A stretch of 64,000 nt of DNA, from NCBI GenBank assembly GCA_045578345.1, contig JAZNKB010000007.1:85150-149149 (forward strand), written 5' to 3'. The notes beneath the pieces are model-generated. The model searched no databases. It was not told the DNA's origin and saw only the letters and a program-made list of their open reading frames with translations. Both the position numbers and the translations under genes were made by a program. Position 1 is the first letter of the stretch, and every line of letters begins with the position of its first letter. Shown here one piece after another: positions 7,496-63,265 of the stretch. The DNA is from Candidatus Onthoplasma sp. (lineage in GTDB: Bacteria > Bacillota > Clostridia > Christensenellales > UBA1242).

Positions 7496-7508
7496 CATAA
7501 ATTTAAAG

Positions 7509-11074: not shown

Positions 11075-11596
11075 ATGAAAAAATTATTAATTGTTTTTGG
11101 TTTGATTTTAATTGTTATTGTGGGTGCATTGTGTGTTCCTAAAAAAGAAATTAATTATGATTATTTACGTTTACATATTCGTGCCAACAGCAACAGCGAG
11201 GTTGACCAAAATATTAAATATGAAATAAAAGATGCAATAGTTGAATTTTTAACGCCACATTTGTGTAATGTTTCAAGCAAAGAAAAAGCAATTAAAGTGG
11301 TTAACAATTATAAATCATTAATGAAAAGTAGATGCTTAGAAATACTTAGGCAAAAGGGGTTTAACTATATGGTCAACATCAAGGTTGATAATGAATTTTT
11401 TCCAACAAGGTCATACGCAAACACGACATTAGAAAGTGGTTATTATGATGCAGTGATCATTGAACTTGGAGAGGCAGTTGGCGATAATTGGTGGTGTGTT
11501 ATGTATCCACCTTTATGTTTTGTGAATAAAAATGAAAATCAAAACCAAATTAAATATAAATCAATAATTTGTGAATGGTTTGAAAAATTATTTTAA
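11075..11596 (+). CDS. spoIIR: stage II sporulation protein R
   Basis: YLRLHIRANSNS and DNWWCVMYPPLCF motifs, with an N-terminal signal/anchor. Confidence 0.85.
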   Translation: MKKLLIVFGLILIVIVGALCVPKKEINYDYLRLHIRANSNSEVDQNIKYEIKDAIVEFLTPHLCNVSSKEKAIKVVNNYKSLMKSRCLEILRQKGFNYMVNIKVDNEFFPTRSYANTTLESGYYDAVIIELGEAVGDNWWCVMYPPLCFVNKNENQNQIKYKSIICEWFEKLF

Positions 11597-11719: not shown

Positions 11720-12424
11720 ATGAAAAAAATATTAATTTGTTTACTTATTTTAATTAGTGGTGTTTTTGCTGTTGTAACTTCGGTTGAAACTGTTAAAACT
11801 GAACCGAACCATAATAATGATGTTATAAGCACGATTTCAAGTATGGATGTTGTTGATGCTGCAGTTGCCAACACAACCGAAGTTCAAAAGAGGTTGAAAA
11901 AGTGGGGGTATTATACTGGTGCGGTTGATGGTATTAATGGACCAAAAACAATTGCAGCTGTTAAAAAATTCCAAAAGAAATATGGGTTAACGCAAGATGG
12001 AATTGTTGGACCTTTAACTGCTGCGAAAATGGGAATTAGTGTTTCGGGTTCATCAAGTAGTTCAAGCTATAACAGCAATGATAGATATCTTCTTGCAAAA
12101 GTTATTTATGCTGAAGCGCGTGGTGAAAGTTATACTGGTCAGGTTGCCATTGGTGCTGTGGTTTTAAATCGTGTTGATGATAGCCGTTTTCCGAACACTA
12201 TTGCTGGTGTGATTTATCAGCCATGGGCTTTCACTGCGGTTAATGATGGGCAAATCAATCTTGAGCCAAATCAAAAAGCGTATCAAGCGGCAGATGATGC
12301 TCTTAATGGTTGGGATCCGACTTATGGCTGTGTTTATTATTATAATCCAGAAACAGCAACAAGCAAATGGATTTGGACAACTAAGAAAGTGACTCAAATT
12401 GGAAAGCATGTGTTTGCAGTATAA
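11720..12424 (+). CDS. sleB: spore cortex-lytic enzyme SleB (PG_binding_1 + Hydrolase_2)
   Basis: Signal peptide, PG-binding repeat (GPKTIAAVKKFQKKYGLTQDGIVG), SleB/CwlJ core (VIYAEARGE..GAVVLNRV..YQPWAFTAV). The ATG at 11720 is preferred over the GTG at 11711. Confidence 0.88.
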   Translation: MKKILICLLILISGVFAVVTSVETVKTEPNHNNDVISTISSMDVVDAAVANTTEVQKRLKKWGYYTGAVDGINGPKTIAAVKKFQKKYGLTQDGIVGPLTAAKMGISVSGSSSSSSYNSNDRYLLAKVIYAEARGESYTGQVAIGAVVLNRVDDSRFPNTIAGVIYQPWAFTAVNDGQINLEPNQKAYQAADDALNGWDPTYGCVYYYNPETATSKWIWTTKKVTQIGKHVFAV

Positions 12425-12573
12425 GATGGCTCGAGTTGTTACGTTTTGCTTAGGTGCTACGCAAAGTCGCAAAACCCAATCAGCTCTCGCCTAAAGGGAA
12501 AGCGGATATTAAATTAAGATGGCTCGAGTTGTTACGTTTTGCTTAGGTGCTACGCAAAGTCGCAAAGCCCAAT
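12422..12573 (+). repeat. tandem duplication: two 59-nt copies at 93-nt period, the first starting at the sleB stop codon
   Basis: 12422-12480 and 12515-12573 are identical except for one A/G difference. Each copy contains a GTTTTGC...GCAAAAC stem. Confidence 0.9.
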
Positions 12574-12743
12574 TAACTTTCGTCTTGGGAATAAGTGGGT
12601 TATTTACGGTTATTAGTTTGTTGGTGTTTGCTAGATATAAATTAAGAAAAAGTGTGATTACAAAAATAATCAAGATCTTGCTTGAGTGTTTAAGGTGCGG
12701 GATAAACATATTGTTTAGCAGGTTTGGGTATGGGATTGTTTAA
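12519..12743 (+). CDS. possible small membrane protein (74 aa) starting inside repeat copy 2
   Basis: ORF track. One hydrophobic segment (GISGLFTVISLLVF). Local G+C is clearly higher than other spacers. No convincing RBS. Confidence 0.25.
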   Translation: MARVVTFCLGATQSRKAQLTFVLGISGLFTVISLLVFARYKLRKSVITKIIKILLECLRCGINILFSRFGYGIV

Positions 12744-14446: not shown

Positions 14447-14512
14447 TAAATAAATATTTATTATATTTAATAATTCCGCACGGTTGTGGAAAAAATAAAA
14501 AGGGGAAATATT

Positions 14513-17500
14513 TTGAAGGGGAAAATATTAAGTTTAAAAATTGTTTTGACGTTGTTGCTTTTGTTGACGGCGAGTTTTTGCTTTGTTGCAAATCCAATAA
14601 ACGAAACAAAGAATTCTACGAAGACAATTGTTGCGTTGGAAAAAGTTAAGCTTGGGACAGATGAAGAAGAATTTAGTGCGCTTGCAGATGGAGGCGTGAT
14701 TCTTTCTGTTGAAAAAGTTAAAGTTAACAGCAACGAAACCGAGTATCAAGATGAAGACGAAAATACATATAGTTATCCAAACCTACTAATGGATGGAGCT
14801 CATAAAACGTTCTATGGGTCTTATGATGCAGTTTTGGAAAAACATCAAAAAGATTATGAAAAAGATAATCCTAATCCATATTCACCGTCGAGTGATGCTC
14901 CTGTTTATAATTCGGGTAATGAAAGTTACGATAGCAGACTATATACTTTCATGGATATTCCTAATAAGGATTCTTCAAAAACAGTTGTTGAAGACGGCAA
15001 GTTTGTTAAACTTGATAACACAACAAGTTCTGGAAAGATTGTAATGCCGGATGACGATAAATTTCAAGAAGCTGTTATGATTTCATTCGGTGCTTATGTG
15101 TTGGATCAAGGTGTTATTGAAACTGCAATCAATGACGATCCAGCAACAACAGATATAAACGAAACCTTTTGCGCAAAAATAACTCAACTAGAAGTTGAAG
15201 TGCATAAAGATGGAAAAAAACAAACAAATATTCCTAACGTTAGAAATATTGGAACTGCCGGAACTGGATTGTATTTCGATTTTTGTTATTTAATCACTCA
15301 AGAAGAAGACAATTCAAATGAAGGATACTATCAACTTAGTTTTAAATATTTGGTTAATTATGTTGAATATAATGCAAACTTCGAATTCTATATATTAAAC
15401 AACTCAACATATAATCAACAAGTCAAACCTAACGGGCAAGACTTAGGGTATGAATCACGACCAACTTTAGGGTGGATTGAAAGCGGTGCAAATAGTGAAT
15501 TTGTTAAAAATCCAAATAATGGCGACAATTATGTTAGATATATGATTGGTTATCACGGAATCTCTTCAGATTACTTTGCTTACCCAACAATCACATATGA
15601 TTACACAAAATATAAATTGACTTATGATCATATAGCAAACCAAAAGAAAACCTCTTATGACTTATCTGTTTCATATAAAAAAACTGGTGAAGCATCATTA
15701 ATTATGACTGCAACATCAAGTTCTGGAACAACCACAACCCCTTTCGAACTTGTTGATTATCACGAATTAAATTTAAACAATTTTGTTACAATAATGTTCA
15801 CAGAACCAGGGACATATGAATTTAATAGTGTATACTTATATCGTGGATATAACTCCAATGTTGCTCCGGATTTGGATTTTGCTCCAATAACAACAAGACT
15901 TTCAATTCATGGAATGAGTGTGCAATACTCAAAAACAAATCAAGAAAGTGCAAATCTTCAATATTTTGAATTGGCATATGAAGAAGGAAATAATGTTGAT
16001 TTAATTATTCCAAATGGATATGAATTGAGTTCAGAGCTTGAAGATAATCAAACACTTGGTTTTGTTTATAAGTTGATTAAAAGAGAAACTCTTGAAGGTG
16101 ATGATGCTAGCGAAACAAAAATGGAAAGAGAAGGAAATATTCTTTCTTCAAATAGCTTAAATTCGTTAATGAACGGAACTTTGTTGAATTCTTCTCACAA
16201 TTCAACTGAAGACTCAGATTTGAAATATTTAACAGAAGAAAGAACTGATGTTGATGCAACAAATAAAGAAGTTACATTGTTGAGAATTAACGATGAAGAT
16301 CAATACACATCAGAAATTGGCGGAAACATTCAAACTATTCTAGATAAAATTGAATATGTTGAAACAAATCAGGGGTCTTTGTGGATTCAAGGTAATGACA
16401 AATTCACTTCAAACAGTTTCTATTATTATAGTCCAACAAACATTGAATTGTTCAAAATAGATGATGGTGGCACACCTGCAAATGCAGCTGACGATACATG
16501 GGTTTCAACCGATTTAACATCTTCATCATTCACAAATATTACAACTTTCAATAAAAAAGGTTATTATCTTGCGTTTATTGAAGTTGAGCCAAGTGGAATG
16601 GCAAGTTCAAACAGTTTCTGGCAAATCTTTGCATTCCAATACACTGCAAGCTCAGTTAACATCAATATCAAAGCTGTTGACGATAAAGGTACTGAAGAAA
16701 CAGCTGACGATACAAGAGTTGATGTTGCGGGTGGAAAATTTACAAACAAACCAGTAGAAATCTCTTGGGTTAAACCTGGAGTGTTTGATAGAGAAATTTT
16801 AGGTTATTATTATTTATCAAAAAATGAAGTGAAGGACAAAGATCAACTTCTTAAAACAGATAAAGAAGAGTTGGTTGTTGTTGAAGAAAAAGTATATAAT
16901 GGTGAGATTTGTTGTGTTGCTCAGTTGGGTGATAGAACACAAATTCCAGAAAATTCATTTGGTAAATATTTAATTCGATTGGAAAGTGAAGGAGATAGTG
17001 CAACACTCAAAACGTTCACAATCGACCGCCAACCAATAGCTGGAGTGCAACCATACTTAATTCAAGCACATGAAACAGCAAATTCAATTTATTATTCTTT
17101 CAAAACGGATGTAAATAATCAGATAATTCCAATTGACAATTCAGTTACTGATAGTTATGCAACATTAAAATGGGACGATAAAGATAGTAATGCTGACATC
17201 ACGGCAACTTATTCATTCACACCATTTGAAATTGCTACAAAAACAGACGCCCCTGTGAATATGATGAATGGAAACAATGGTGCTGACTGGGTGTTAAGCA
17301 ACTACGTTTTAGGTAATACTAGTTTCGGCTTAGAATTGGTTAGACCTGTTTCTGAATCTCTTGTTTCAGGCGAAAGTGTTTTATTCAGTCAGGGTATATA
17401 TTTAATCACACTCAAAGATGAGGCTGGAAACGAAACGGTTTATGCGTTTGTGATTGATAGAACTAACGGGTACTTCAAAATTGGAGAAGGAGAAGATAGT

Positions 17501-20500
17501 CAATTCGTTACAAACACAACAGTTGTTTCAGGAGAAAATATAGAATTTGATATCGGTGAATACAAAGCGTTTAAACTTGATTTGACACCAGACACTGATT
17601 TGCAAAAGTTTGTTAATGCGGCTGCAACAAATGATTACACAAACTTCCCAAAATATTATTCAGACGCATGGAACAAAACATCTTTATCTAAGTTGTTCCA
17701 AAAAAATGGAAGTGATTATTATTTTACAATCGAAAATATTGGTGTTGTTACATACGATGGCGAGTTGCTAGATAAAGATCCAAATGCTCCAACTGAAGTG
17801 GAGGACGAAATTATATATGATGAGAGTGAAAATTCAACATATTATCACCGAACAATTTACATTAAAAGCATAAATAGTGTTTATACAACACATAATTCGA
17901 TTTATAACACAAGTAATTCTTATATCAATGCAATTATTAACAAAGACAATGCAAGAGGAGCGGTTTATCATTCAAATGTTAAAATTGATATTGATAATGT
18001 TCCTGAGTTTGGACAAGAAACCCAAAATATAAAATTGTTAGATACAGGAAAAGGTGACACTCATGAGCAAGGAATTTCAAAAGCAGAAGCAACAAGTGCA
18101 AAGCATGTTGGTTTCACTTGGATTAAAGGTTCTGGTCAGTTTGAAGTTTCAAAGGTTTATTATAAGATATATTCATTAAGTCAAAATTCATGGGATAACA
18201 ATCCTGAAACAGATAATGTTTATTTTTACTATAGCAACGACTCAGATCCAATTATGGCATATGCAAATGGAGAAGCTAAACCTGGAACAACCGATGAGGG
18301 TGAAAGATGTGTAATTTCGTTTAATAATAACAATGAAAGTAAAGCTGGTCTTTATGTTGTAACAAGAGAATATAAGGAAATTGAAAACGCAGACTTGGGT
18401 GAAGATGTTAGGATTAGAAATTATTACTTCATTGTTGATAGAAACGGAATCATTCAAGGTGAAGTTGGTGGAAATATTAAGTTAGAACTTATGGAAGGCC
18501 AAACAGAACTTTCAAAGAGTGATTTCTCTCTTCAAAACGCAGATTATGGTGTTCTAGATGATGAAGAATCGGGAATTTCTAATGAAAAGTATTATATATA
18601 TTTGTCAACAACAAAACTTCCAGCAACCCTTAATATTCCAACAGGAAAATATGTTGATGAAAACAATCACAGCAGTAGTTTGTATGAAGCTGGTAAATTG
18701 GATGTTAGAGTGTATTATATTAACACTAAAAATCAAATCAAAGGACAACCAGATCAAATTAAAATTTACGATTCAATTTATATGGCTAATAAGGACAAAC
18801 TAATAGTTGGTGCAGATGGAACATATACAATTGATATATATGAATATCTGTCTTATGAGAACATAGTTATTCGCGATCTTCTCACAGAATCATCGTCTGG
18901 AACGAACAAAGATAGAAGAGAATGGTTGTTCTTGCCGGGTAGATATGTTGTTAGAATCTCTGATAACGTTAAGGATTCATCGGAAAAGAAACAAGTAAAA
19001 CTTATTGGTTTTGAAATTGTGTCAAAAGATGAAACAGGTCCAGAAATTGATAAATACACTGGCTCAACAAAGCAGGACATGATTAAGTTGAACGAATTGT
19101 CGTCAGGAACAACAGAAAACAACTTTACTGTAAGTCAAGAATACTTAAAAGTTGTTCTTCCTCCATATGATGAAAATATTGAAACAAGAGCTCAAGTTGA
19201 CCCATCTTATATTGTTGTTAAACAATATGTTGGAAACAGCACTGTTGGTGAAGATTATTTGATTCACGACTATGTTCCTGGTGGGGCAATAAGTTTAACA
19301 GAAAATTCAAAGTTTGTTACAATTGATGATAACGGAACAGAAAATGACAAAAGTGATGATTTAATCAATATTTGGTTAGACACAAAACTAAGAGTTGACC
19401 CAGATGATCCAAATTCAGAAATTGACTATGATAATTTAAATAAAGCTTTAAGGTATGAAATTACAATAAGATATAAATTAAATAATCTCAAAGATTCTAA
19501 TGATAGAAATTGGACAAAGGAAAATTGTGAAAGATATAAAAATTGTTACATATATTACACCGATAATAATGAATTGGTAGAGTATTATCAAACAACTTAT
19601 ACAATAAGAATCGACCGTGAAGCGCCAAGCAAAAATATAACTGAATTGAACACAAACGATCCGATGGCTAATGATTATGTTACAGATCAAGAAGTTGACA
19701 GTATGTTTGAAAATGGTGTTCATCGTACGGGTTCTAACTTATATTTTACAAAACAATATTCAAAATATTATCAAACAAACAGAGAAAACAAAGGTCATAT
19801 TTATGCTTACATGGTTTATGGTAAAACAATTTTTGATTGGACTGATGTAAACAAAGTTTTAGTTAAAAAAATTGGCACATACGCTGATCTTGCGCAATAC
19901 AACTTAACATTACCAGTTGTGGATGAGGGTTCTTATAATAAAGTTGAAGCTAAAGAAAGAACTTATGGTCAGCTTGGTGAGTTTAATGAAAGCAACACTT
20001 ATTATGAAGTTGTTGAATTCGATTTTGCGGGTAATGCAACTCAATATGTGATTCATTATGAACCAGTAGCACCAATGATTGAAATTCCAATAATTGGTAC
20101 GTTAACAACGAGTGGAGAAAAATCTGTTAAAATAACATTGGATGAAAACGAACAAATTAACATTTTCGAACTTAAATTAGGAAATTGGGAAGAATTTAGA
20201 AGAAATGATAATTTCTATAAAATTGAATTGTTTAAATCTGGCAAATCAATTTATTCCGTTTTCACAAATGCAACAACTGACTATGAAAAAGAACTTCAAA
20301 CAATTGTTGAAAAAATCGAAAAAGAGAAATTCGGATTCTTCACAATAACAATAACATCACGTAAAGGTGAAATTGTTGATTCACGTGTGGTTTTAAGCAA
20401 GGTTTCAAGTTCAATTAATATAAACCTTTTCAACAGTGAAGATGTGATTCCTTTAGATATTGAAGACTTGATTATTAAAGGTGATTCATATAAAATTGAT

Positions 20501-23134
20501 TTAAATGGTGCGAACATTTATGATGAAGAAAAAGAGATTTGGTATTTTGCAACTCAAATCGTTTTAATTTCAGGAAATTCACCAACTCCAACAATCTACA
20601 CAGGAACTTACGACAGCAGTTTAAATTCAATTATTTACACAAATGAGGCTGGAGACGAAAAAAGATTCGTTGATTGTGACGCTTCAACAACTTATTATAT
20701 TGAAATGAAAGAAGTTGTGGGGACTGTAACAAAATATAGATTTAATACAGCTGGCAGAGAATTTGTTGTTCTTGACTTTGAAGACGTTAATGGTGAAGAA
20801 GCAAATTATTATAGAGGTTCACTAGATACAGATTTTGTATATTATGGTTTCTCAAGTGCAACATTAAAATATGATGAAACAATTTATTCAAGCACTATAT
20901 ACAAGAAGAATAATGGAGAATATAAACCATTAGATCGCAGACCTGATGGAAGCTATTCTGACCCACGCATTACATCATTTTCTAAAAATGATGGATACTA
21001 TGAGTACAACATTGCTGAACCAGTAAATGAATTAATTGAAGTTAAAATTGAATTAATTTACGATGGTGATGTTGAGATAACATACTTTATTACAATTGAC
21101 ACAAGAATTTCCAATGTTGTTTTGAGAGATTATAACACGGCTGAAACGAGAAACATCATTCAAAAATTTTCAAACAAAAACTATTATGATGATTCAATTC
21201 GTGCAAACAGTGTTGGCTCAGGGATTATGAATCTTCAATGGGACAACATTGAAGGAAATGATTATTTTGATTATAAATATAGACTCTATGAAGAATTAAA
21301 AGACGACAAAGGTTATAGAAAATACAAATTAATTAATGGCGTGTATGTTGAAGATGAAGAAGGTGAAATTGGCCTCAAATTAAACGGAAAGAATAGTACT
21401 GTTATTGCAACAGGAAATGATAGTGAGGGTGTGTATGTGTTCGAAATTCGAGTATACGGCAAGGATGGAACATATCTTGGAAACAGACTTTTTGCTTTTG
21501 AAGTGAAAGAAGTTAACACTCAAGTTTATTATGTGAGAAATCAAGAAGGTGCTGCAATTCAACCAAATTCATGGTTTAAATTCACTGAAGTACCATCTAT
21601 TTTGGCTAACGCAACCGAATTCAATAATGTTAACAAAAATTTGGAACTTCCGCTTTATATAACAAATCAAAATTTGGAAGTTGTTATCACAGCAATGAAT
21701 ATTGAGCCTATATCTAAAACTTATTCTCCAAAAGATGAAAAAGGAAATACAATTTATGAGCTAACAATTCATAAATTATCAAAACCAAATGTTTATGATA
21801 TTGTATTTGGTGTGATTAAATACGATGTGTCATCACAACTTGTAACAAATGTTCAAATTATTGGTGAACAAAATTATGAAGTTGGAAAAACAACAAATTT
21901 CACTATTGCAGGACTAAAAAATACCAGTGTTTCAATTTCGGGAGATGTTAATGAAGCTTTAACAGCGTTAGGCGGAGACATTGCAAAGAAAAATATTGTT
22001 TACATAAATGCTTACTATAATGATGAGTTAATTTCTTCAACTCCATTCAATAATGAATATACTATTCCAGGAAATGGTCAATACTCTTTCACTTTCACAG
22101 ATTTGGCAGGAAATGTGCATGAGTTTATTGAAGACGAAGATGGAAATTCAATCGATTCACTTGATTTACTTAAAGTTTATGTGATGAGAGAAGTTGTTGT
22201 GTTAATTAATGGTGAAGCACCTGTTAGCAATGCGTTCTATAATAACAATGTAACATTAACTCTTTATGCAAGTAATAAGTATGTGACTGGAAGCGTTGAG
22301 GTTAAGGCAGAGAAAAATGGTCAGACTTATATTCCTGAAGGATATAATCCATATATCTTCTCTGATTATGGAACATATAGAGTTGTTATAACTGCAAAAT
22401 ACAACAACGGAACAAACAACTATGATTTACAAAAAATTATCACATTCACAATAATAAATGTTAATGAAGCAAGAAAGTCTATCGACTTAACAAGTTTAAA
22501 TGGAAGTACAATCACAAAAGTTGTTAATTCTTCTGGGCAAAACGTAACAACAGCATTTAAAACAATGATGAAACAAAACTCAACTAAGGGTGGTTTAAAT
22601 ATTTCTTATGAAGATGTCTTAGAGTATGAAACAAATCCTGAAAACAAAGATAAGTTATTTGTTACAAGTGGAAAAATAACTTTCACATTAACTTATTTAG
22701 TGAGTGATGAAGAATATCCAGATCGTTCAATAGATTTGAGTTTTACATTAACAAACAAAACAGCAAGTATTCCTTGCACACTTGAAAAAGGTGAATCAAC
22801 AACAAAGAGTTTCACAATTTACTTCAACCCATCAATTATTTATGAGCAAGTTGGGGAATCTTATGTGTACATAAATGATAAAATGGTTGCACACATTGGT
22901 GAAAATTCTGATAACAACGAAACAAAAATTAAAATTTCTTTCAAAGGAAATGGTGATGGTGATTATTACATAAAACTTGTAAGTTCTTCAGGTGTGATTT
23001 TGGATAGTTACAAACTCACAATCAAAGAACCGCTTAACGCAAGTGCAATTATTATTATCATAGTTGTAGTTGTTGTGGTTGCGACTGTTGTTGTAACAAT
23101 TATCTTGTTAAGACGCAAGATGAGGATTAGATAA
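14513..23134 (+). CDS. giant (~2870 aa) secreted surface protein with C-terminal TM anchor
   Basis: Uninterrupted 8.6-kb ORF. A TTG at 14513 lies 7 nt after AAAGGGG and yields a classic signal peptide (KGKILSLKIVLTLLLLLTASFCFVA). The C-terminus is a 27-residue I/V-rich stretch (AIIIIIVVVVVATVVVTIILL) followed by RRKMRIR, with no LPXTG. N/T/Y/E-rich beta-type composition. Confidence 0.85.
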   Translation: MKGKILSLKIVLTLLLLLTASFCFVANPINETKNSTKTIVALEKVKLGTDEEEFSALADGGVILSVEKVKVNSNETEYQDEDENTYSYPNLLMDGAHKTFYGSYDAVLEKHQKDYEKDNPNPYSPSSDAPVYNSGNESYDSRLYTFMDIPNKDSSKTVVEDGKFVKLDNTTSSGKIVMPDDDKFQEAVMISFGAYVLDQGVIETAINDDPATTDINETFCAKITQLEVEVHKDGKKQTNIPNVRNIGTAGTGLYFDFCYLITQEEDNSNEGYYQLSFKYLVNYVEYNANFEFYILNNSTYNQQVKPNGQDLGYESRPTLGWIESGANSEFVKNPNNGDNYVRYMIGYHGISSDYFAYPTITYDYTKYKLTYDHIANQKKTSYDLSVSYKKTGEASLIMTATSSSGTTTTPFELVDYHELNLNNFVTIMFTEPGTYEFNSVYLYRGYNSNVAPDLDFAPITTRLSIHGMSVQYSKTNQESANLQYFELAYEEGNNVDLIIPNGYELSSELEDNQTLGFVYKLIKRETLEGDDASETKMEREGNILSSNSLNSLMNGTLLNSSHNSTEDSDLKYLTEERTDVDATNKEVTLLRINDEDQYTSEIGGNIQTILDKIEYVETNQGSLWIQGNDKFTSNSFYYYSPTNIELFKIDDGGTPANAADDTWVSTDLTSSSFTNITTFNKKGYYLAFIEVEPSGMASSNSFWQIFAFQYTASSVNINIKAVDDKGTEETADDTRVDVAGGKFTNKPVEISWVKPGVFDREILGYYYLSKNEVKDKDQLLKTDKEELVVVEEKVYNGEICCVAQLGDRTQIPENSFGKYLIRLESEGDSATLKTFTIDRQPIAGVQPYLIQAHETANSIYYSFKTDVNNQIIPIDNSVTDSYATLKWDDKDSNADITATYSFTPFEIATKTDAPVNMMNGNNGADWVLSNYVLGNTSFGLELVRPVSESLVSGESVLFSQGIYLITLKDEAGNETVYAFVIDRTNGYFKIGEGEDSQFVTNTTVVSGENIEFDIGEYKAFKLDLTPDTDLQKFVNAAATNDYTNFPKYYSDAWNKTSLSKLFQKNGSDYYFTIENIGVVTYDGELLDKDPNAPTEVEDEIIYDESENSTYYHRTIYIKSINSVYTTHNSIYNTSNSYINAIINKDNARGAVYHSNVKIDIDNVPEFGQETQNIKLLDTGKGDTHEQGISKAEATSAKHVGFTWIKGSGQFEVSKVYYKIYSLSQNSWDNNPETDNVYFYYSNDSDPIMAYANGEAKPGTTDEGERCVISFNNNNESKAGLYVVTREYKEIENADLGEDVRIRNYYFIVDRNGIIQGEVGGNIKLELMEGQTELSKSDFSLQNADYGVLDDEESGISNEKYYIYLSTTKLPATLNIPTGKYVDENNHSSSLYEAGKLDVRVYYINTKNQIKGQPDQIKIYDSIYMANKDKLIVGADGTYTIDIYEYLSYENIVIRDLLTESSSGTNKDRREWLFLPGRYVVRISDNVKDSSEKKQVKLIGFEIVSKDETGPEIDKYTGSTKQDMIKLNELSSGTTENNFTVSQEYLKVVLPPYDENIETRAQVDPSYIVVKQYVGNSTVGEDYLIHDYVPGGAISLTENSKFVTIDDNGTENDKSDDLINIWLDTKLRVDPDDPNSEIDYDNLNKALRYEITIRYKLNNLKDSNDRNWTKENCERYKNCYIYYTDNNELVEYYQTTYTIRIDREAPSKNITELNTNDPMANDYVTDQEVDSMFENGVHRTGSNLYFTKQYSKYYQTNRENKGHIYAYMVYGKTIFDWTDVNKVLVKKIGTYADLAQYNLTLPVVDEGSYNKVEAKERTYGQLGEFNESNTYYEVVEFDFAGNATQYVIHYEPVAPMIEIPIIGTLTTSGEKSVKITLDENEQINIFELKLGNWEEFRRNDNFYKIELFKSGKSIYSVFTNATTDYEKELQTIVEKIEKEKFGFFTITITSRKGEIVDSRVVLSKVSSSININLFNSEDVIPLDIEDLIIKGDSYKIDLNGANIYDEEKEIWYFATQIVLISGNSPTPTIYTGTYDSSLNSIIYTNEAGDEKRFVDCDASTTYYIEMKEVVGTVTKYRFNTAGREFVVLDFEDVNGEEANYYRGSLDTDFVYYGFSSATLKYDETIYSSTIYKKNNGEYKPLDRRPDGSYSDPRITSFSKNDGYYEYNIAEPVNELIEVKIELIYDGDVEITYFITIDTRISNVVLRDYNTAETRNIIQKFSNKNYYDDSIRANSVGSGIMNLQWDNIEGNDYFDYKYRLYEELKDDKGYRKYKLINGVYVEDEEGEIGLKLNGKNSTVIATGNDSEGVYVFEIRVYGKDGTYLGNRLFAFEVKEVNTQVYYVRNQEGAAIQPNSWFKFTEVPSILANATEFNNVNKNLELPLYITNQNLEVVITAMNIEPISKTYSPKDEKGNTIYELTIHKLSKPNVYDIVFGVIKYDVSSQLVTNVQIIGEQNYEVGKTTNFTIAGLKNTSVSISGDVNEALTALGGDIAKKNIVYINAYYNDELISSTPFNNEYTIPGNGQYSFTFTDLAGNVHEFIEDEDGNSIDSLDLLKVYVMREVVVLINGEAPVSNAFYNNNVTLTLYASNKYVTGSVEVKAEKNGQTYIPEGYNPYIFSDYGTYRVVITAKYNNGTNNYDLQKIITFTIINVNEARKSIDLTSLNGSTITKVVNSSGQNVTTAFKTMMKQNSTKGGLNISYEDVLEYETNPENKDKLFVTSGKITFTLTYLVSDEEYPDRSIDLSFTLTNKTASIPCTLEKGESTTKSFTIYFNPSIIYEQVGESYVYINDKMVAHIGENSDNNETKIKISFKGNGDGDYYIKLVSSSGVILDSYKLTIKEPLNASAIIIIIVVVVVVATVVVTIILLRRKMRIR

Positions 23135-23868
23135 TGAATAATTGGCATACTGAGAGATTGATTATTGACGATACTTATGTCAATCACGAAATGAAAGTTC
23201 CGGTTACTGAACTTATGAAACTGTTCGAAGTTGCAACGTTTAACCATTCAAACGAAATGGGATTGGATCACGTGTCAATGGAAAAGATGAGTCATGCTTT
23301 TTGGGTTGTGACAAAAATGAAAGTGATTCTTCTTAGCCCAATCGTAACGAATGAAAAAGTGAGTGTTACAACATGGACACGCGAACTTGGAACAGCGCGC
23401 GCTTTAAGAGATTGTGTTATTAAATCTAAGAATAAAGTGAAAGCAAAATTTCTTGCCGAATGGTGTTGTTTAGATTGGGACACAAGAAAATTAAGACGAA
23501 TGAACACAATTTGCTATCCAGAACTCGTTATGGAAAAAAAAGATTATGTTAAAACAGAATTTACAAACATAAAAGAAGAGATGGGTGAAAAAGATTTTGT
23601 TTACACGCGCATAATACGAGCAACAGACATTGATGTTAACCTTCATACAAACAATTTAAAATATAACTACATGGCTCTTGATGCTTTCAGTATTGAAGAA
23701 CTTAATTCTTTTGACATAAAAGAATATGAAATTTATTTTGTGAACGAAAGTCATGAAGGTGACAAAATCAACATTTACAAAAAGAAAACAAAAAACTATT
23801 TCTTAATTGAAGGCAAAACAGAAGAGAAAATAATTTTCAGAGTAGTTATGAAAGTTAAAAGAAAATAA
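23134..23868 (+). CDS. acyl-ACP thioesterase
   Basis: Double hot-dog pattern (FWVVTKMKV, TWTRELGTARALRDCVI, WCCLDWDTRKLRR, DIDVNLHTNN). Its start overlaps the giant gene's stop (TAATG). Confidence 0.85.
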   Translation: MNNWHTERLIIDDTYVNHEMKVPVTELMKLFEVATFNHSNEMGLDHVSMEKMSHAFWVVTKMKVILLSPIVTNEKVSVTTWTRELGTARALRDCVIKSKNKVKAKFLAEWCCLDWDTRKLRRMNTICYPELVMEKKDYVKTEFTNIKEEMGEKDFVYTRIIRATDIDVNLHTNNLKYNYMALDAFSIEELNSFDIKEYEIYFVNESHEGDKINIYKKKTKNYFLIEGKTEEKIIFRVVMKVKRK

Positions 23869-23896
23869 AAAAGAGAGATCAAATCTCTCTTTTTTA
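23866..23896. terminator. bidirectional intrinsic terminator
   Basis: AGAGAGAT-caa-ATCTCTCT flanked by A- and T-runs. Confidence 0.85.
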
Positions 23897-25039
23897 TTCG
23901 TTTGGTTTTTCTTCGGCTTGTGAAATCTTTTCAATCGGTTTTGAAATTTCTTCAATTGCAACTTTCTTTTCAAGACGCTTCTTTGTTTGCTTAACTTCGC
24001 GTTTTGGAACAAGCTGGAAGAAAACTTCACCTTCGTGCGATTGGAAATAAACGCCAACAATATCTTTTTTCTTGGTGCTGAGAATATAGTAAGCAGCACG
24101 TTTTCTAGCACCACCCACAATGTAGCCCACTTTTTTTGAGTTTGGTTCAACAAAAACATTATATGCACGAAGTCTACCTTGATTGTCAACGATTGTGATT
24201 CCATCAAAGTTAAGCATGTTCATAAATAAATCTGCATAAGCTTGAAGTTTTTCTTCGTTGTAACTTTTTGATTGGGTGAATAATTTACTAAAACTGATTG
24301 GTTCTTTAAGCCAAATTCCATCTTCAAACAATCCATTGTCTTCGTAATCTTTGTCAACAATAACGCAAATTGAGCCGTTCACTTGGCTTAGCACGTTTGA
24401 GAAAATATTTAAATACATGTTTTTCATGTCTTGCAACTTCCTTTGAGTTGTTCTTAATTTTGAGAAAGTTGCATCAACAAACTCGCTGATTTCATGATTA
24501 AATATGTTGCTTTTTGATTTATCCAACGAAAAGTTAATGATGAGGTCATTTCCGGAAATGGAGTGGAGAATCATTGAATAAAAGTTAAGAGGACGAGCAA
24601 CAACACAACATATTTTTCCTGGTTTGTCCTTAATTGTGGTGTTTTCTTGCAAACTTCTTATAAGGTTTCTATCTTTAATGCTTGTAAAAGACATTAAAAT
24701 TCCATAACTAATTTTGTTTTCTTTAATGTCAATGAACAAACACCAATCGTTTTTGATAATTGGCAAAATTGATTTCAAATGTGAGTTGAAGTTTGTTGCA
24801 TCTGTATCTTCAAAGATTGTCATTGCATAACTTTTTGGAATTGAACGCACAATTGACTCAATATTGTTCGTGAAAACAATTTTAGGTTGAATGGACGTTC
24901 CTTCCTCAGAGTAGTTTAAGATATCATTAAATTTGTGTAAGAAGTGTGACATTAATAGTGGCGGAAAGTTTTCAAATTCCTTTTCGAAGAAATTTGTCAC
25001 ATTTTCTTTTGCGTTGTCAAAAAAAATCATTTCTTCCAT
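23894..25039 (-). CDS. protein with C-terminal DisA_N (diadenylate cyclase)-like domain carrying non-canonical motifs
   Basis: GSICVIVD .. FDGITIVDNQGRLRAYNVF .. GGARKRAAYYI .. SHEGEVFF runs parallel to CdaA GALITI .. HDGAVI .. GTRHRAA .. SEETGGVS. The ATG at 25039 lies behind GGGGA. Confidence 0.55.
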   Translation of the reverse strand: MEEMIFFDNAKENVTNFFEKEFENFPPLLMSHFLHKFNDILNYSEEGTSIQPKIVFTNNIESIVRSIPKSYAMTIFEDTDATNFNSHLKSILPIIKNDWCLFIDIKENKISYGILMSFTSIKDRNLIRSLQENTTIKDKPGKICCVVARPLNFYSMILHSISGNDLIINFSLDKSKSNIFNHEISEFVDATFSKLRTTQRKLQDMKNMYLNIFSNVLSQVNGSICVIVDKDYEDNGLFEDGIWLKEPISFSKLFTQSKSYNEEKLQAYADLFMNMLNFDGITIVDNQGRLRAYNVFVEPNSKKVGYIVGGARKRAAYYILSTKKKDIVGVYFQSHEGEVFFQLVPKREVKQTKKRLEKKVAIEEISKPIEKISQAEEKPNE

Positions 25040-33491: not shown

Positions 33492-33520
33492 TTGACAAAA
33501 CAATTTTTTTGATTTAGAAT
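33492..33520 (+). promoter_or_regulatory. sigma-A type promoter of the T-box leader
   Basis: TTGACA (33492-33497), 17-nt spacer, TAGAAT (33515-33520). Confidence 0.7.
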
Positions 33521-33559
33521 AATATCAATAGGTAAAACTATTAATAAAAAACTTAATAA

Positions 33560-33940
33560 AAACTGTGAAGATGTGTTCAGTAGTAATTTTGCTTTCATAA
33601 AGGGAGAGTGGTCGGCGATTGAGAGCCACTTATGTTCAGGTGAATTTACGAATTTCAGCATTGGAGTTGCACTCGGTAAACTTTAATTGTTAGATTAAAG
33701 GTTAAGAGTTGCCAGATAAAACTGTGAAAATAAAATGAGGCAAATGTTACTTTAAAAAAGTTGTGCAAAATTCTCAGGGTTCCCACAAGTTGAATAACGC
33801 AGTGGGAAAGTGAGCAAACGAGCACAAGTCGAAATTTGTAAATTAATTTACAAATGAGTTGAAGCGAGAATTTGCGAACTATTAGGTGGTACCACGAAAT
33901 TGATATAATCTCGTCCTATTAATTTAGGGCGAGTTTTTTG
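33560..33940 (+). promoter_or_regulatory. T-box riboswitch leader, probable Phe specifier
   Basis: Conserved T-box ATTAGGTGGTACCACG (33881-33896). Terminator CTCGTCCTA-6nt-TAGGGCGAG plus T6 (33910-33939). Stem-I-like AGAGTGG / GGTGAA elements. GAAT-TTC-A at 33654-33656 is the candidate UUC specifier. Confidence 0.85.
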
Positions 33941-33956
33941 TTTAAAAGGAGAAGAA

Positions 33957-34646
33957 ATGCAAGAACTGAAATTTTTAGGTTGTGGCGGGGCAACAAACGT
34001 TGAAATGGGTGGCAATTGTGCATTTTTAAAACATCAAAACAATTTGTTGTTGATTGATTGTTGTGAAGATGCAACAAAAAAATTGATTGATAAAAATTTG
34101 TTTAATCAGGTTGATAACATCTTTATTGTTCTTACGCATATGCATTTTGATCATATTGCTGGTATTGGAACATTGATTTGGTTTTGTAACTTTAGATTAA
34201 ACCTAAAACCAAAAATAATAATCAATTCTAAAACTTTCAAAAGAAAGTTAATTAAATTATTTAAGCTCGGCGGAGTTAATCCTGAACGTGTTGAATTTAT
34301 TCCACAGACTGATTTCGCTTTTGATGACTTGACATTAGAAATGAGAAAAACAAATCACGCTGAAGAACTTGAGTGTTATGGAATAATGTTTAAGGATAAC
34401 ATTGGGAAATATTATTATAGTGGGGACACAAGAGACTTTGACAATATAAAACAATTAAGTTTAGATGAAGAATTAAGAACAATTTATTGTGAAGTTAGCG
34501 AAACTAGTCATGGTGTGCATTTATGTTATGACGATATAAAAACTTTAAACAAAGAAAAATTTGTTTTAATGCACTTTAACACAAAGGAACTTTTTGAACA
34601 AGTTGTTAAAGACGGCTACAAAGTTGCAACAATAGATAAACATTAA
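33957..34646 (+). CDS. MBL-fold metallo-hydrolase
   Basis: THMHFDHIAG (HxHxDH) motif. RBS AAAGGAG. First gene after the T-box. Confidence 0.8.
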   Translation: MQELKFLGCGGATNVEMGGNCAFLKHQNNLLLIDCCEDATKKLIDKNLFNQVDNIFIVLTHMHFDHIAGIGTLIWFCNFRLNLKPKIIINSKTFKRKLIKLFKLGGVNPERVEFIPQTDFAFDDLTLEMRKTNHAEELECYGIMFKDNIGKYYYSGDTRDFDNIKQLSLDEELRTIYCEVSETSHGVHLCYDDIKTLNKEKFVLMHFNTKELFEQVVKDGYKVATIDKH

Positions 34647-34746
34647 TTAAAAGGAGAAATTATATTGAAACAAGTTCAATATATATTCTCTTAAAATCTG
34701 CTTGTTATTTGCAAGCAAAACAACCAAATTTAAAAGGAGAAATTAT
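34647..34746 (+). repeat. copy E1 of an ~83-nt two-hairpin SD-duplicating repeat
   Basis: 17-nt TTAAAAGGAGAAATTAT occurs at 34647-34663 and 34730-34746. Between them: hairpin TATATTGAA-acaag-TTCAATATA (34661-34683) and hairpin TGCTTG-7nt-CAAGCA (34699-34717). Confidence 0.8.
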
Positions 34747-35776
34747 GCAAGATAGAATTAATGAAATTTTAAGTTACACAAAGGAAAAATTAGAAACAAT
34801 CACAAGTAGTAACGAATGCCAAAATTTACGTGTTGAAATTTTGGGCAAAAGCGGAAAAATCACAGCGCTTTTCCGTTTCATGAAAGAAGTGCCAGCGGAA
34901 GAAAAAGGCAAAGTTGGCGCAATGTTAAACAATGCAAAAAATGATGCTGAAAAATTAATCAGCGCAAAGGAAGTGTTTTTGGAGCAAGCAGAGCTAGAAA
35001 AGGAAATCAATTCTGCTGAAAAGATAGATATAACTTTACCATGTGAACACAAAGTCGGAAGTCTTCATCCAAGAACAATAATTCAAAAGCAAATTGAAGA
35101 TGTTTTCATCTCAATGGGCTTTGTTGTTGAAGATGGAAACGAAGTTGAAACTGAATATAACAACTTCACTTCCGTAAACGTTCCTGAAAATCATCCTGCA
35201 AGGGACATGCAAGACACATTCTGGCTTGATAACGGTCAAGTTTTGAAAACGCAAACATCTGCTGCTCAAAACAAGATTTTGAAAAAATATCCTGTGCCAA
35301 TCAGAGCAATTTTCCCAGGCCGTTGTTTTAGAAATGAAGACATTGACGCAAGTCACGAAAACACATTCTTCCAACTTGAAGGTGTTATTGTTGATAAGGA
35401 TGTTTCAGTTGGAAACCTTATTTACTTCATGAAAGAAATGTTATCTAAGATATTCAAAAAAGATGTTGAAGTGCGTCTTCGCCCAGGATTTTTCCCATTC
35501 ACAGAGCCAAGTTTCGAAATGGATGTAAAGTGTCCATTCTGTGACGGAAAAGGTTGCCCAACCTGTAAAAATGGTGGTTGGATTGAACTTTGCCCATGTG
35601 GTATGATTCACCCTAACGTTTTAAGAAATGGTGGCGTTGACCCTGAAAAATATTCAGGTTGCGCTTTCGGTCTTGGACTTGACCGTATGGTAATGCTAAG
35701 TTTAGGACTCAAAGACATTCGTGATTTAAACAGCGGAAACTTGAAACTGCTTAATCAGTTTAAGTTGGACGTTTAA
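34745..35776 (+). CDS. pheS: phenylalanine--tRNA ligase alpha subunit
   Basis: Typical PheS N-terminal coiled coil and class II core (FRNEDIDASHENTFFQLEG, GLGLDRMVML). The ATG at 34745 lies behind AAAGGAG. Confidence 0.95.
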   Translation: MQDRINEILSYTKEKLETITSSNECQNLRVEILGKSGKITALFRFMKEVPAEEKGKVGAMLNNAKNDAEKLISAKEVFLEQAELEKEINSAEKIDITLPCEHKVGSLHPRTIIQKQIEDVFISMGFVVEDGNEVETEYNNFTSVNVPENHPARDMQDTFWLDNGQVLKTQTSAAQNKILKKYPVPIRAIFPGRCFRNEDIDASHENTFFQLEGVIVDKDVSVGNLIYFMKEMLSKIFKKDVEVRLRPGFFPFTEPSFEMDVKCPFCDGKGCPTCKNGGWIELCPCGMIHPNVLRNGGVDPEKYSGCAFGLGLDRMVMLSLGLKDIRDLNSGNLKLLNQFKLDV

Positions 35777-59819: not shown

Positions 59820-59917
59820 CATTATGCTTTTTAAAGTGATTAAGCAAAGCAAAAAACAGCAAGCAATCAAATTCCAAAGTTGACTTTAAATAATCATGAT
59901 TACAAAAGTAATCAAGT

Positions 59918-60235
59918 CTATTTGTTTGCTTCGTTGAGCATTTTGATAAATGTTGAAACAGAAGGAACGTTCTGAGGTTCTAAATTTAAAATGTCATCAA
60001 TCAGTTTTTGCTTTTCTTCTGGCAACATTTTCTTGTCAATAATGTTTTTGTCATCAAGTCCTGCCAAAGTTTCCAGGCTGCAGTTTAAAAATTCCGCCAT
60101 TTTAACAAAAGTGTCTAAAGGTGGTTGATGAGTTCCTTTTTCATACGTTCTTATTGTATTGGTTGTTATGTTACAATAGTCTGCGAGTTGCTGTTTAGTT
60201 TTCTTTAATGTTTGTAATAAATGTTTAATTTTCAT
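59918..60235 (-). CDS. XRE-family HTH transcriptional regulator
   Basis: LKKTKQQLADYCNITTNTIRTYEKGTHQPPLDTFVKMAEFLNCSLETL. Start moved to MKIKHLL. Confidence 0.8.
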   Translation of the reverse strand: MKIKHLLQTLKKTKQQLADYCNITTNTIRTYEKGTHQPPLDTFVKMAEFLNCSLETLAGLDDKNIIDKKMLPEEKQKLIDDILNLEPQNVPSVSTFIKMLNEANK

Positions 60236-60338
60236 AATAAATCCTATTACAATTATAAAAACGCTAAACATTTTCGACATTTTTATATAAAAAGTTGTTT
60301 TAACACTAAACTTTTATAGCGTTTTTACTTGACATGTA

Positions 60339-60368
60339 TTGACATATGCTATAAATCTTTAGTAAAAT
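60339..60368 (+). promoter_or_regulatory. candidate promoter (two overlapping TTGACA hexamers)
   Basis: TTGACA at 60329 and at 60339. The second, with an 18-nt spacer, reaches TAAAAT (60363-60368). Confidence 0.45.
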
Positions 60369-60415
60369 TTCTATGTAAATGCAGGATAACATAAAAATAT
60401 TTAGCATTTTCAATA

Positions 60416-60529
60416 CAAAACAATCAAATAAAAAGGAGAAAATTATATACGAAGCAAGTTCGATATAGTTAAACCTTTTTATCGCTTGTCTTTGCAAGCA
60501 AAACAATCAAATAAAAAGGAGAAAATTAT
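60416..60529 (+). repeat. copy E2 of the SD-duplicating two-hairpin repeat
   Basis: 31-nt CAAAACAATCAAATAAAAAGGAGAAAATTAT occurs at 60416-60446 and 60499-60529 (period 83 nt). Hairpins at 60444-60467 and 60484-60499. Confidence 0.85.
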
Positions 60530-60803
60530 GAAAGAAGTAAAATTGTTTACAGAAGAAGAAAAAGAAAAATTAAAAGAGAGAATTAAAGATTTTGAAAATG
60601 TTGAGTCATATCAGATGATGAAAATTCGATTTATGTCAGAACTAAACAGAATAGATAAAGCAATTGTTTTTGCAAAAGGTGAGCAAGTTGAAGAATTAAA
60701 AGAGTGTGCAGAAAAGCATATTAAACAACTTGAAAATTACAGAAAAGACCTTATCGATTGTTTGGGGTTCATTTTTGGGTATAAGGATGAACAATATTGT
60801 TAA
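60528..60803 (+). CDS. small coiled-coil protein (91 aa)
   Basis: The ATG lies behind AAAGGAG of the second repeat arm. Divergent from the XRE gene. Confidence 0.55.
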   Translation: MKEVKLFTEEEKEKLKERIKDFENVESYQMMKIRFMSELNRIDKAIVFAKGEQVEELKECAEKHIKQLENYRKDLIDCLGFIFGYKDEQYC

Positions 60804-60844: not shown

Positions 60845-60873
60845 TTGACAAACTCGTTTTGATGTGTTATTAT
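60845..60873 (+). promoter_or_regulatory. sigma-A type promoter with extended -10
   Basis: TTGACA (60845-60850), 17-nt spacer ending in TGt, TATTAT (60868-60873). Confidence 0.6.
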
Positions 60874-60879
60874 ACTTGC

Positions 60880-60901
60880 ACACCGAAGCGGGTGTTTTTT
60901 T
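60880..60901 (+). terminator. terminator-like hairpin directly after the promoter
   Basis: ACACC-gaagcg-GGTGT followed by T7. Confidence 0.55.
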
Positions 60902-61019
60902 AACGAGCGTTTGAAAAAATGTAAGTTAACAAGACATATAGTTTCACGTTGTCTTATTAACTAGCAGATCATTTTGTTCTAAAACATCCAAAATGTAATG
61001 GTAAAAAGGAGAATAAATT

Positions 61020-61193
61020 ATGGCAGGAAAGAAAGCTAAATCTAAAAGAGAAAAAATCGTTTTAGAATGTACTGAATGTAAATCAAGAAATTACAGCACA
61101 ACTAAAAACAAGGCAAACGACCCAGAAAGAAAGGAACTCAACAAATATTGCCCTAAGTGCAAGAAAACAACAGCACACAAAGAAACAAAATAG
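61020..61193 (+). CDS. rpmG: 50S ribosomal protein L33
   Basis: Hand translation: [57 protein letters not shown] (57 aa, below the ORF-track cutoff). RBS AAAGGAG. Confidence 0.9.
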
Positions 61194-62899: not shown

Positions 62900-62904
62900 A
62901 AAAT

Positions 62905-62995
62905 AGGAAACTATATTGAAAACAAGTTTCAATATTATATACTTTTTAAATTGCTTATCATTTGTAAGCAAAATTATCAATTAAAAAGGAAACTA
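62905..62995 (+). repeat. copy E3 of the two-hairpin repeat (not followed by a start codon)
   Basis: AGGAAACTA occurs at 62905-62913 and 62987-62995 (period 82 nt). Hairpins ATATTGAAA-acaag-TTTCAATAT (62913-62935) and TTGCTTA-7nt-TAAGCAA (62951-62971). Confidence 0.75.
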
Positions 62996-63265
62996 ATCAG
63001 CCTTTAAAGAGAGAGAAAACTTTTGTGGGAGAATTACTAATTCAGTAACACCACACCATAGCGGAAAAATATGTTATTCGCAAGCTCATAAACATATAAT
63101 TCATCTCATTGATTTATTTGTTGGAATATGTCAACGCACTAGTGCGTTTTAAAACAATTCCTTCAAATGTGTCTTCAAATAAATTTGAATTCAAATTGAG
63201 AGAATTGTTTGTGGCGAGTTCTCGCCTTGACATAATTTCCAAAAATAAGTAAAAGGAGAAAAATT

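Follow-up and report, generated by a model that had tools for sequence, protein, structure and literature searches.

A candidate mobile element with two hairpins at Shine-Dalgarno/start-codon junctions in uncultured spore-forming Clostridia

A family of short two-hairpin repeats that lie on Shine-Dalgarno (SD) sequences and duplicate them was analyzed in a 64,000-nt stretch of the genome of Candidatus Onthoplasma sp. (contig JAZNKB010000007.1, positions 85,150 to 149,149; referred to below as the window). The repeat is probably a small, non-autonomous and near-neutral mobile element that targets SD/start-codon junctions within one clade of uncultured spore-forming Clostridia. As far as the sequences can tell, comparison of related loci shows that it inserts with duplication of the SD region, in one orientation and co-directionally with transcription, and that insertion into the regenerated SD gives tandem copies. 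A preliminary description of the window had offered two readings, either a MITE-like unit (MITE, miniature inverted-repeat transposable element) that targets ribosome-binding sites (RBSs), or a portable 5'-untranslated region (5'-UTR) cassette. Mobility and RBS targeting are supported by filled and empty sites. However, the element is no classical MITE, since it lacks inverted repeats and makes a long duplication, and the cassette alternative is disfavored by decaying orphan arms and old copies.

Copies of the element and their filled and empty sites

The window contains three homologous copies, all on the + strand: E1 (34647-34746), E2 (60416-60529) and E3 (62905-62995). Their homology and positions, first given in the preliminary description, were confirmed by alignment (mean column identity 74%), by shuffling (chance expectation of the core motifs 0.00), and by nhmmer and covariance-model searches of the 64-kb window, which returned exactly E1, E2 and E3 (E 1e-12 to 1e-20) and also picked up an extra partial arm at E2. 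The next-best covariance-model match (23855-23951, 25 bits) is an ordinary terminator. The periods of E1, E2 and E3 (83, 83 and 82 nt) and their exact arms (17, 31 and 9 nt) are as originally described. In all known copies a core of 64-68 nt and arms of 15-19 nt give a sum of 82-85 nt, and the G+C content of the element is 19-27%. A census of 320 kb of clade sequence identified 11 copies at four sites, all on the strand of the downstream gene.

The relatives used for comparison are metagenome contigs (L-numbers) with 73-90% DNA identity in pheST. At pheS, empty sites with one SD and identical flanks were found in L251 (PheS 96% identical at the amino acid level), L248 and L252. The junction reads ...TAAACATTAATTAAAAGGAGAAATTATGCAAGATAGAAT in L251 and ...AAACATTAA TTAAAAGGAGAAATTAT [66 nt] TTAAAAGGAGAAATTAT GCAAGATAGAAT in the window; compared to L251, the pheS copy is an exact 83-nt insertion consisting of a 66-nt core and a 17-nt duplication of the native SD. 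This copy, E1, is located between the stop of a 229-aa open reading frame (ORF229, ending at 34646) and the pheS ATG (34745). Its left arm (34647..34663) is an upstream duplicate of the native pheS SD region TTAAAAGGAGAAATTAT carrying an orphan SD; it has the same sequence as the right arm and as the lone SD of the empty sites in L251 and L248. The core (34664..34729), absent at the same junction in L251, L248 and L252, comprises hairpin 1 (34661-34683; loop ACAAG), whose stem starts inside the left arm, a pyrimidine-rich "anti-SD" TTCTCTT (34686-34692), hairpin 2 (34699-34717) and a CA/A-rich tail (34718-34729). The right arm (34730..34746) is the working pheS SD, is identical to the native SD of the relatives and ends in the AT of the pheS ATG (34745-34747).

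The rplK-leader site is filled in the window, L002, L257, L261, L258 and L262, and empty in L001, L259, L260, L263 and L265, where the leader AGGAAACTAATCAGCC directly follows the upstream gene; the empty sites of L001, L265 and L263 read ..(A/T)ATAGGAAACT(A/C)AT... In the window this site holds E3, which comes after the stop codon of a 128-aa ORF (62899) and adjoins the rplK leader, with no start codon there. The left arm of E3 (62900..62914; AAAATAGGAAACTAT) is an upstream copy of the SD-like start of the leader, and the right arm (62983..62997; AAAAAGGAAACTAAT) runs into the conserved leader sequence AGGAAACTAATCAGCC... Between them lies the core (62915..62982), with orthologous copies in the five filled relatives; it contains hairpin 1 (62913-62935, again starting inside the left arm), an anti-SD-like stretch CTTTTTAA (62942-62949), hairpin 2 with the stem GCTTA/TAAGC (62951-62971) and the tail (62972-62982). 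The short exact arm of E3 reflects its non-SD target and/or decay.

E2 is located in the 5' UTR of an orphan 91-aa ORF (ORF91), downstream of a promoter-like site at 60339-60368. Its core (60447..60512, 66 nt) carries hairpin 1 (60441-60470), which starts inside the left arm and has a CGAA/TTCG top and the loop GCAAG, followed by the anti-SD CCTTTTTAT (60474-60482), hairpin 2 (60484-60499) and the tail (60500-60512); the right arm (60513..60529) is the working SD of ORF91 (ATG 60528-60530). The left arm (60416..60446) is 31 nt long and combines a 14-nt element tail (60416-60429) with a 17-nt SD arm (60430-60446), and weak homology detected by nhmmer continues leftward to 60405. The 14-nt tail is probably the remnant of an older adjacent copy, and given the tandem copies seen in L261 the 31-nt arm is best explained by insertion beside the tail of that older copy. 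With these readings of the E2 and E3 arms, and with a duplication of about 15-19 nt next to a core of about 64-68 nt, the combination of variable arms and a constant period is for the most part no longer puzzling.

The fourth site, the SD of rpmG, was recovered through an exact look-up of the window L33 protein, which gave ten relatives' loci. L262 carries one copy, with a GGAGA-to-GGAGA distance of 83, and L261 carries two copies in tandem, with an SD arm behind each and periods of about 84-85. The site is empty in the window (61003..61022, + strand, native SD/start AAAAAGGAGAATAAATTATG) and in seven other relatives' loci, which have the single native SD GGTAAAAAGGAGAATAAATTATG. Filled and empty states were thus found at three of the four sites, the comparison with relatives recommended in the preliminary description having revealed empty counterparts at pheS, the rplK leader and rpmG. 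Both arms of the copies match the native target and not the arms of other copies. The preliminary description had also placed the distal arm of two copies on a real gene start, which holds for pheS and ORF91; E3 adjoins the rplK leader and not a start codon.

Insertion takes place in strong SD/start contexts, AAAGGAGAA-N-TTAT^G, at their 3' edge, and at three of the four sites (pheS, ORF91 and rpmG) the insertion point lies between the AT and the G of the start codon; the exception, seen once, is an insertion at the SD-like sequence AGGAAACTAAT^C. The left junction is always ..(T/A)AT | AT(T/C/A)..GAA, and in all copies about 30 nt separate hairpin 2 from the insertion point. The target duplication measures about 11-19 nt and is typically 17 nt long (17 nt at pheS, about 19 at rpmG, at least 17 at ORF91 and 11-15 at the rplK leader, where only 11 nt of the arm are unambiguously native). 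The right arm is native sequence (e.g., 19/19 at rpmG), and so is the left arm of young copies (17/17 at pheS). These lengths fit a fixed core of ~66 nt plus a duplication of ~17 bp, with the left edge blurred by A-runs; they also fit a unit of constant length (83 nt) that is set in register with the target SD by its 3' end. Owing to the duplication, the downstream gene keeps its own untouched SD, spacing and ATG, and an orphan SD remains upstream. The context AAAGGAGA..TTATG is found in only about six genes of the window, three of which (pheS, ORF91 and rpmG) are occupied within the clade, and target choice looks sequence-specific.

Predicted folding and decay of the copies

Both hairpins fold in every window copy with RNA and DNA parameters, and the whole-element folds of the + strand have z-scores of -3.5 (E1), -4.2 (E2) and -2.0 (E3). 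Between the hairpins lies a spacer rich in pyrimidines that is complementary to the SD arm and whose anti-SD occurs in the versions TTCTCTT, CCTTTTTAT, TCTCTTTT, TCTCTTT and TTCCCTTTT. In the minimum-energy folds of all five copies located at true SDs, the orphan SD pairs with the anti-SD around hairpin 1, which gives a predicted hairpin of 45-57 nt and leaves the downstream SD unpaired. Structures in which the anti-SD was forced onto the downstream SD were 3-6 kcal/mol worse, and when the left arm was removed in silico the anti-SD paired with the real SD instead. The arm-spacer duplexes were better than those formed with shuffled spacers in each of the five SD-site copies (p 0.007 to 0.06), but not in the rplK-leader copies, whose target is no working SD; in E3 the anti-SD is predicted to pair with an A-rich stretch before the right arm. 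The tail (CAAAACAAYCAAAT + A-run) is predicted to be unstructured. The resulting layout, SD / hairpin / anti-SD / hairpin / spacer / SD, would amount to a compact natural design for an insulated RBS.

Compensatory changes in both stems had initially been taken as a sign of selection on structure. They are real but differ in weight. In hairpin 1, three stem versions (TTGAA/TTCAA, TCGAA/TTCGA and TCAGC/GCTAA) all pair, and 94% of cells are paired compared to 61.5 +/- 5.8% in shuffles, none of 5000 shuffles reaching the observed value in this set of related copies aligned by hand with the loop as anchor. The case for hairpin 2 is weaker than originally claimed. Among 10 copies 96.7% of cells are paired, with one double change (GCTTA/TAAGC in the window copy E3 versus GCTTG/CAAGC in its orthologues) and three G.U variants, and this hairpin is conserved rather than covarying; 94 of 500 shuffles attain the double change by itself.

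Signs of decay are found in the orphan (left) arms, with 4/9 mismatches in L262 and GGAG changed to GAG in L261, whereas the right arms stay native. Among the rplK-site copies, a U.U mismatch in hairpin 1 is common to three orthologues, the copy of L257 has a 5-nt deletion, and hairpin 1 of the L258 copy is destroyed. These old copies are 81-88% identical to one another and evolve faster than the adjoining leader, where 44 nt are the same in two of three contigs and the third deviates by an A-run 2 nt longer. Structures that remain whole in young copies and erode in older ones are the pattern of a mobile element and not of a host regulator. The L262 copy at the rplK site (11546-11592) contains a 53-nt insertion placed exactly in the loop of hairpin 2.

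The element also affects the reading frames at its target sites. A 9-codon TTG mini-ORF (34665-34694), pointed out in the preliminary description, does exist in E1, but the corresponding mini-ORFs of E2 and E3 have other lengths and sequences; the idea of a leader peptide was dropped, as the mini-ORFs are not conserved. In addition, the element creates an in-frame, TTG-start extension of pheS by 12 codons (LQAKQPNLKGEI; 34709-35776, a 355-aa ORF) and a 14-codon TTG-start extension of ORF91 (60486-60803), both of which could mislead gene callers. N-terminally extended PheS homologues (354-397 aa) were also inspected, and their extensions are not element-derived. If the element is indeed mobile, orphan SDs and spurious N-terminal extensions would arise from its insertions, and the 355-aa TTG-start pheS ORF bears on annotation in this lineage.

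Proposed mechanism, alternative readings and gene context

In the mechanism that we propose, hairpin 1 and the spacer anti-SD would fold back on the orphan SD and silence it within the 45-57-nt hairpin, and hairpin 2 together with the unstructured CA/A-rich tail would keep the real SD single-stranded. Because the SD/start is returned by the duplication and the orphan SD is masked, an insertion would be nearly neutral for the host and could persist; persisting insertions would then decay with age. Mobility would be supplied in trans by a separate enzyme. Arguments against DDE cut-and-paste are that inverted repeats are lacking, that the duplication is long and starts in an A-run next to the A-rich tail, and that the unit length is constant; the same features may point to copy-in by template switching or by target-primed synthesis anchored on SD homology. 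The marks that would fit a retro-mobile element are indirect: an A-rich 3' tail, a duplication that begins in a target A-run, and the absence of inverted repeats. A more specific version, in which targets would be found by pairing with the SD (via the anti-SD or the SD-like 3' end) and then receive the element by target-primed or template-switch copy-in, with a fixed 5' end and a unit length that does not depend on the length of the duplicated arm, is a long shot. If true, such pairing-guided copy-in would be a bacterial counterpart of insertion of the short interspersed nuclear element (SINE) type or of integration guided by RNA or single-stranded DNA (ssDNA) at translation starts; to our knowledge, neither has been described.

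Several observations weigh against a mobile element. No transposase, recombinase or reverse transcriptase is encoded among the window ORFs, and terminal inverted repeats are absent, the core ends ATTGAAAC... and ...CAACCAAAT sharing only ATT in reverse complement. The relatives whose pheS site is empty reach only 82-90% DNA identity, and at any one site the empty state could in principle stem from recombination between the direct repeats that removed the element. For E2 there is no relative with an empty site, because ORF91 is an orphan, and the known set comprises only four sites and 11 copies. The covariation in hairpin 2 is not significant, as 78-94 of 500 shuffles reach it, and a host function might be behind the good conservation of hairpin 2 and the tail over long times.

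Such a function is at the center of an alternative that we regard as unlikely, namely a portable 5'-UTR or intercistronic cassette that is selected by the host as a translational or mRNA-stability device and spread by recombination for its benefit to genes. Possible modes of action are a decoy SD relieving an anti-SD block, a STAB-SD-type 5' stabilizer or an insulated RBS. The anti-SD can pair with either SD and, were it not for the decoy, would mask the real one. Every copy lies in a predicted transcript in sense orientation: promoter-like sites are found upstream of all three window copies, at 33492 (T-box operon), 60339 (ORF91) and 62083 (ORF121-ORF128-E3-rplK), and neither a terminator nor a conserved promoter was found inside the element in these copies, a candidate promoter or terminator of its own having been discarded for want of a conserved match (E3 alone has a sigma-70-like match, 10/12, at 62916-62943; E1 and E2 have none). 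With promoters upstream and no internal terminator, the copies are probably transcribed in sense as parts of mRNAs. Hairpin 2 and the tail are strongly conserved, and the rplK-site copy has been kept across several lineages. However, the orphan arms and old copies decay (the SD lost in L261, hairpin 1 gone in L258, the shared U.U mismatch, the L257 deletion and the L262 insertion), and close relatives express the essential genes pheS and rpmG without the element. Moreover, no switch is evident, since the real SD is predicted to be free in every copy, and the mini-ORFs are not conserved.

The near-constant period at all loci (82-85 nt), the two-copy tandem array in L261 and the exact direct repeats formed by the arms, which would permit slippage, are also features of a minisatellite resembling the mycobacterial MIRUs, in which a ~83-nt unit expands and contracts by replication slippage at a small number of loci, the arms represent a partial last repeat (1.1-2.2 copies) and no insertion machinery is involved. 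We consider this very unlikely. Slippage cannot account for the origin of an initial copy at four unrelated loci, the core sequences are homologous from locus to locus whereas the arms are locus-specific native sequence, and the strong differences in hairpin 1 between the tandem copies of L261 argue against recent slippage. Finally, an attC-like recombination scar at the joints of strain-specific genes (ORF229, ORF128 and the XRE-ORF91 pair), which all three window copies adjoin, has next to no probability and was rejected because the element and the neighboring novel genes occur separately: L251 and L248 keep an ORF229 remnant without the element, the element is present but ORF128 missing in L002, L257, L261 and L262, no novel gene borders the rpmG copies, and no integrase was found nearby in the window.

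That the repeat belongs to no named family, as the preliminary description had supposed, agrees with the uniformly negative outcome of Rfam, phage and plasmid searches. Applied to the whole window at the gathering threshold, Rfam returned tRNA only, leaving the element unmatched, and at permissive thresholds none of the three window copies had a credible match. Blastn of the element against phage and plasmid collections gave sub-significant fragments only, and three pattern scans of viral contigs gave nothing or chance matches only. The pattern GCTTRTN{1,2}TTTGYAAGCAAAA retrieved no family member from genome contigs among the matches listed (119 loci), and the pattern TTTGYAAGCAAAAYNAYCAAWT retrieved from metagenome contigs, among the matches listed, an unrelated interspersed repeat. 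Two unrelated repeat families were noted in the collected contigs. One, ACTAGTCTGTAAACCCATTTTGCAAGCAAAATGATCAAATAAGCAAAAGACTAAAGTG, is interspersed on more than 100 metagenome contigs of the Ga01162xx/Ga0209xxx series (L125-L244); it resembles the end of a transposon, and these contigs probably come from eukaryotes. The other is G+C-rich (GGCATCCTTCGC..GCTTATTTTTGCAAGCAAAAAAAATCTACGGATAGCAA..GCCATCCGTAGC) and occurs in many metagenome-assembled genomes of Lentisphaerae/Victivallaceae (L012-L122), where it forms tandem arrays with periods of ~130 and ~200 nt (e.g., L036 1380-1798, L117 2674-3064).

The window, with a G+C content of about 31%, represents the ordinary chromosome of an uncultured spore-former; the sporulation and germination genes in it and in its relatives include those of Spo0A, SpoIIE, SpoIIR, GerA-type receptors and SleB/YpeB. 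The pheST operon has a T-box leader (33556..33921, + strand; Rfam RF00230, E=5.9e-9, 47.6 bits, below the gathering score) with a terminator at 33910-33933; clear T-box homologues are present in the relatives, in all of which pheS is preceded by such a leader. The T-box leader is followed by ORF229 (33957-34646), E1 and pheS, which makes E1 an insertion between cistrons of a transcript under T-box control. The junction between this leader and pheS (window 33900-34770; L245, L247, L248, L250, L251, L252) is a hotspot of gene insertion. In the window it holds ORF229, a metallo-beta-lactamase-fold ORF with a weak, sub-threshold Apyc1-like match, in L250 a 377-aa gene of the phosphodiesterase family, in L252 a 175-aa GNAT, in L245 and L247 no gene, and in L251 and L248 only a ~60-nt remnant of ORF229. 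The latter ORF starts with a copy of the pheS SD + ATGCAAGA, repeated in L251 over 20/20 nt, and this start looks like an insertion with long target duplication. Exact-protein look-ups of the window PheS, ORF229 and NusG returned no record.

A two-gene insert (59918-60803), located between a DAGK-like gene and the rpmG promoter and absent from L247, consists of a minus-strand gene for an XRE-type helix-turn-helix protein and ORF91, which had no homologue besides itself among 5.8 billion proteins; ORF91 and ORF121 are both near-orphans. A possible remnant copy of the element at the other end of this insert (59828-59880) was rejected, as 24-58 of 300 shuffles align equally well. Upstream of rpmG, in every relative (L258-L267) as in the window (60845-60905), a hairpin, ACACCGAAGCGGGTGT, and a T-run come immediately after a near-consensus promoter, an attenuator-like arrangement upstream of the L33-SecE-NusG genes. 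The rplK leader (62987-63265; AGGAAACTAATCAGCC...GTGGGAGA...ACCACACCAT) is conserved in all relatives (L001, L002, L258-L266), has no Rfam match and is presumably the autoregulatory leader of the L11 operon; in the window and L002, ~170 extra nt with two hairpins (63071-63240) lie between this leader and the rplK SD. Elsewhere in the window, two 71-nt direct repeats unrelated to the element (12422-12492 and 12515-12585; 93% identical, 93 nt apart) sit between a sleB-like hydrolase gene and ypeB. Other unusual reading frames are a 2882-aa ORF of unknown function (14486-23134) and a gene for a 170-aa zinc-ribbon protein (6983-7495) with a long acidic D/E repeat tail (7241-7498).

Comparison with known systems

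If the element is a mobile one, it would provide a clean natural case of harmless insertion into a compact genome by way of the SD/start junction. It shares with classical MITEs (Correia, RUP, bcr1) its small size, non-coding and non-autonomous nature, intergenic location, hairpin formation, insertion polymorphism and target duplication. In contrast to them, it lacks terminal inverted repeats, makes a duplication of about 11-19 nt instead of 2-10, is strict in orientation and start-codon position, and has no parent insertion sequence (IS) in the window. Long direct target duplications are known from other systems: IS1549 and IS1634 generate target repeats of 8-514 bp by an unknown mechanism (PMC2266710), and restriction-modification genes insert with duplications of >30 bp and no other mobile element (PMC2853133). 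These are, however, kilobase-sized genes or ISs with a transposase, unlike the element, a 66-nt non-coding unit with a defined target motif, which would add a further case of long target duplication without a transposase signature.

REP/REPIN sequences and IS200/IS605 derivatives are likewise short hairpin-forming repeats, presumed to be mobilized in single-stranded form by an enzyme acting in trans, and the choice of IS200/IS605 targets by internal-guide pairing resembles the complementarity of anti-SD and SD. Yet neither kind makes a target duplication, and IS200/IS605 elements insert 3' of a short target without one, in contrast to the exact 17-nt duplication at pheS. REPs have a high G+C content, a conserved 5' tetranucleotide and a RAYT gene, none of which was seen for the element; no HUH/Y1 transposase is encoded in the window. 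Integron attC sites always occupy the 3' end of a cassette ORF and have an integrase near, whereas the element is separable from its neighbors. It therefore fails the defining tests of a classical MITE, a REP/REPIN, an IS200/IS605 derivative and an attC site.

The closest counterparts are the mycobacterial MIRUs and the REP2 repeats of Neisseria. MIRUs are short, apparently mobile intergenic repeats, some tens of bases long, that occur in variable tandem copies; they insert at start codons in the orientation of the gene and spare expression of the target gene (PMC12548453). The element similarly lies at start codons in the orientation of the gene (junction ..TTAT^G at pheS, ORF91 and rpmG; 11/11 copies on the gene strand) and, in L261, is present as tandem copies. 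The sparing device differs: in a MIRU, the gene is spared by means of an internal ORF coupled to it in translation with a -4 overlap, whereas the mini-ORFs of the element are unconserved and end well before the ATG, its period of 83 is not a multiple of 3, and the gene would be spared by SD duplication and anti-SD masking of the orphan SD. The two also differ in host phylum, base composition and sequence, and we know of no description of a two-hairpin layout in MIRUs. Our reading, if correct, would extend the start-codon-inserting behavior of MIRUs to Firmicutes, with a different way of sparing the target.

The REP2 repeats of Neisseria and the IR repeats of Borrelia have no terminal inverted repeats, contain two stem-loops and carry a 3' RBS (and ATG) upstream of ORFs; their mode of spread is unknown (Delihas 2011, PMC3184786). 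The element resembles REP2 in its two internal stem-loops and in the RBS directly upstream of an ORF. REP2, however, is associated with co-regulated genes and itself supplies a promoter, an RBS and an ATG, whereas the element has no conserved promoter, its SD is the duplicated sequence of the target itself, and insertion polymorphism with target duplication was seen directly.

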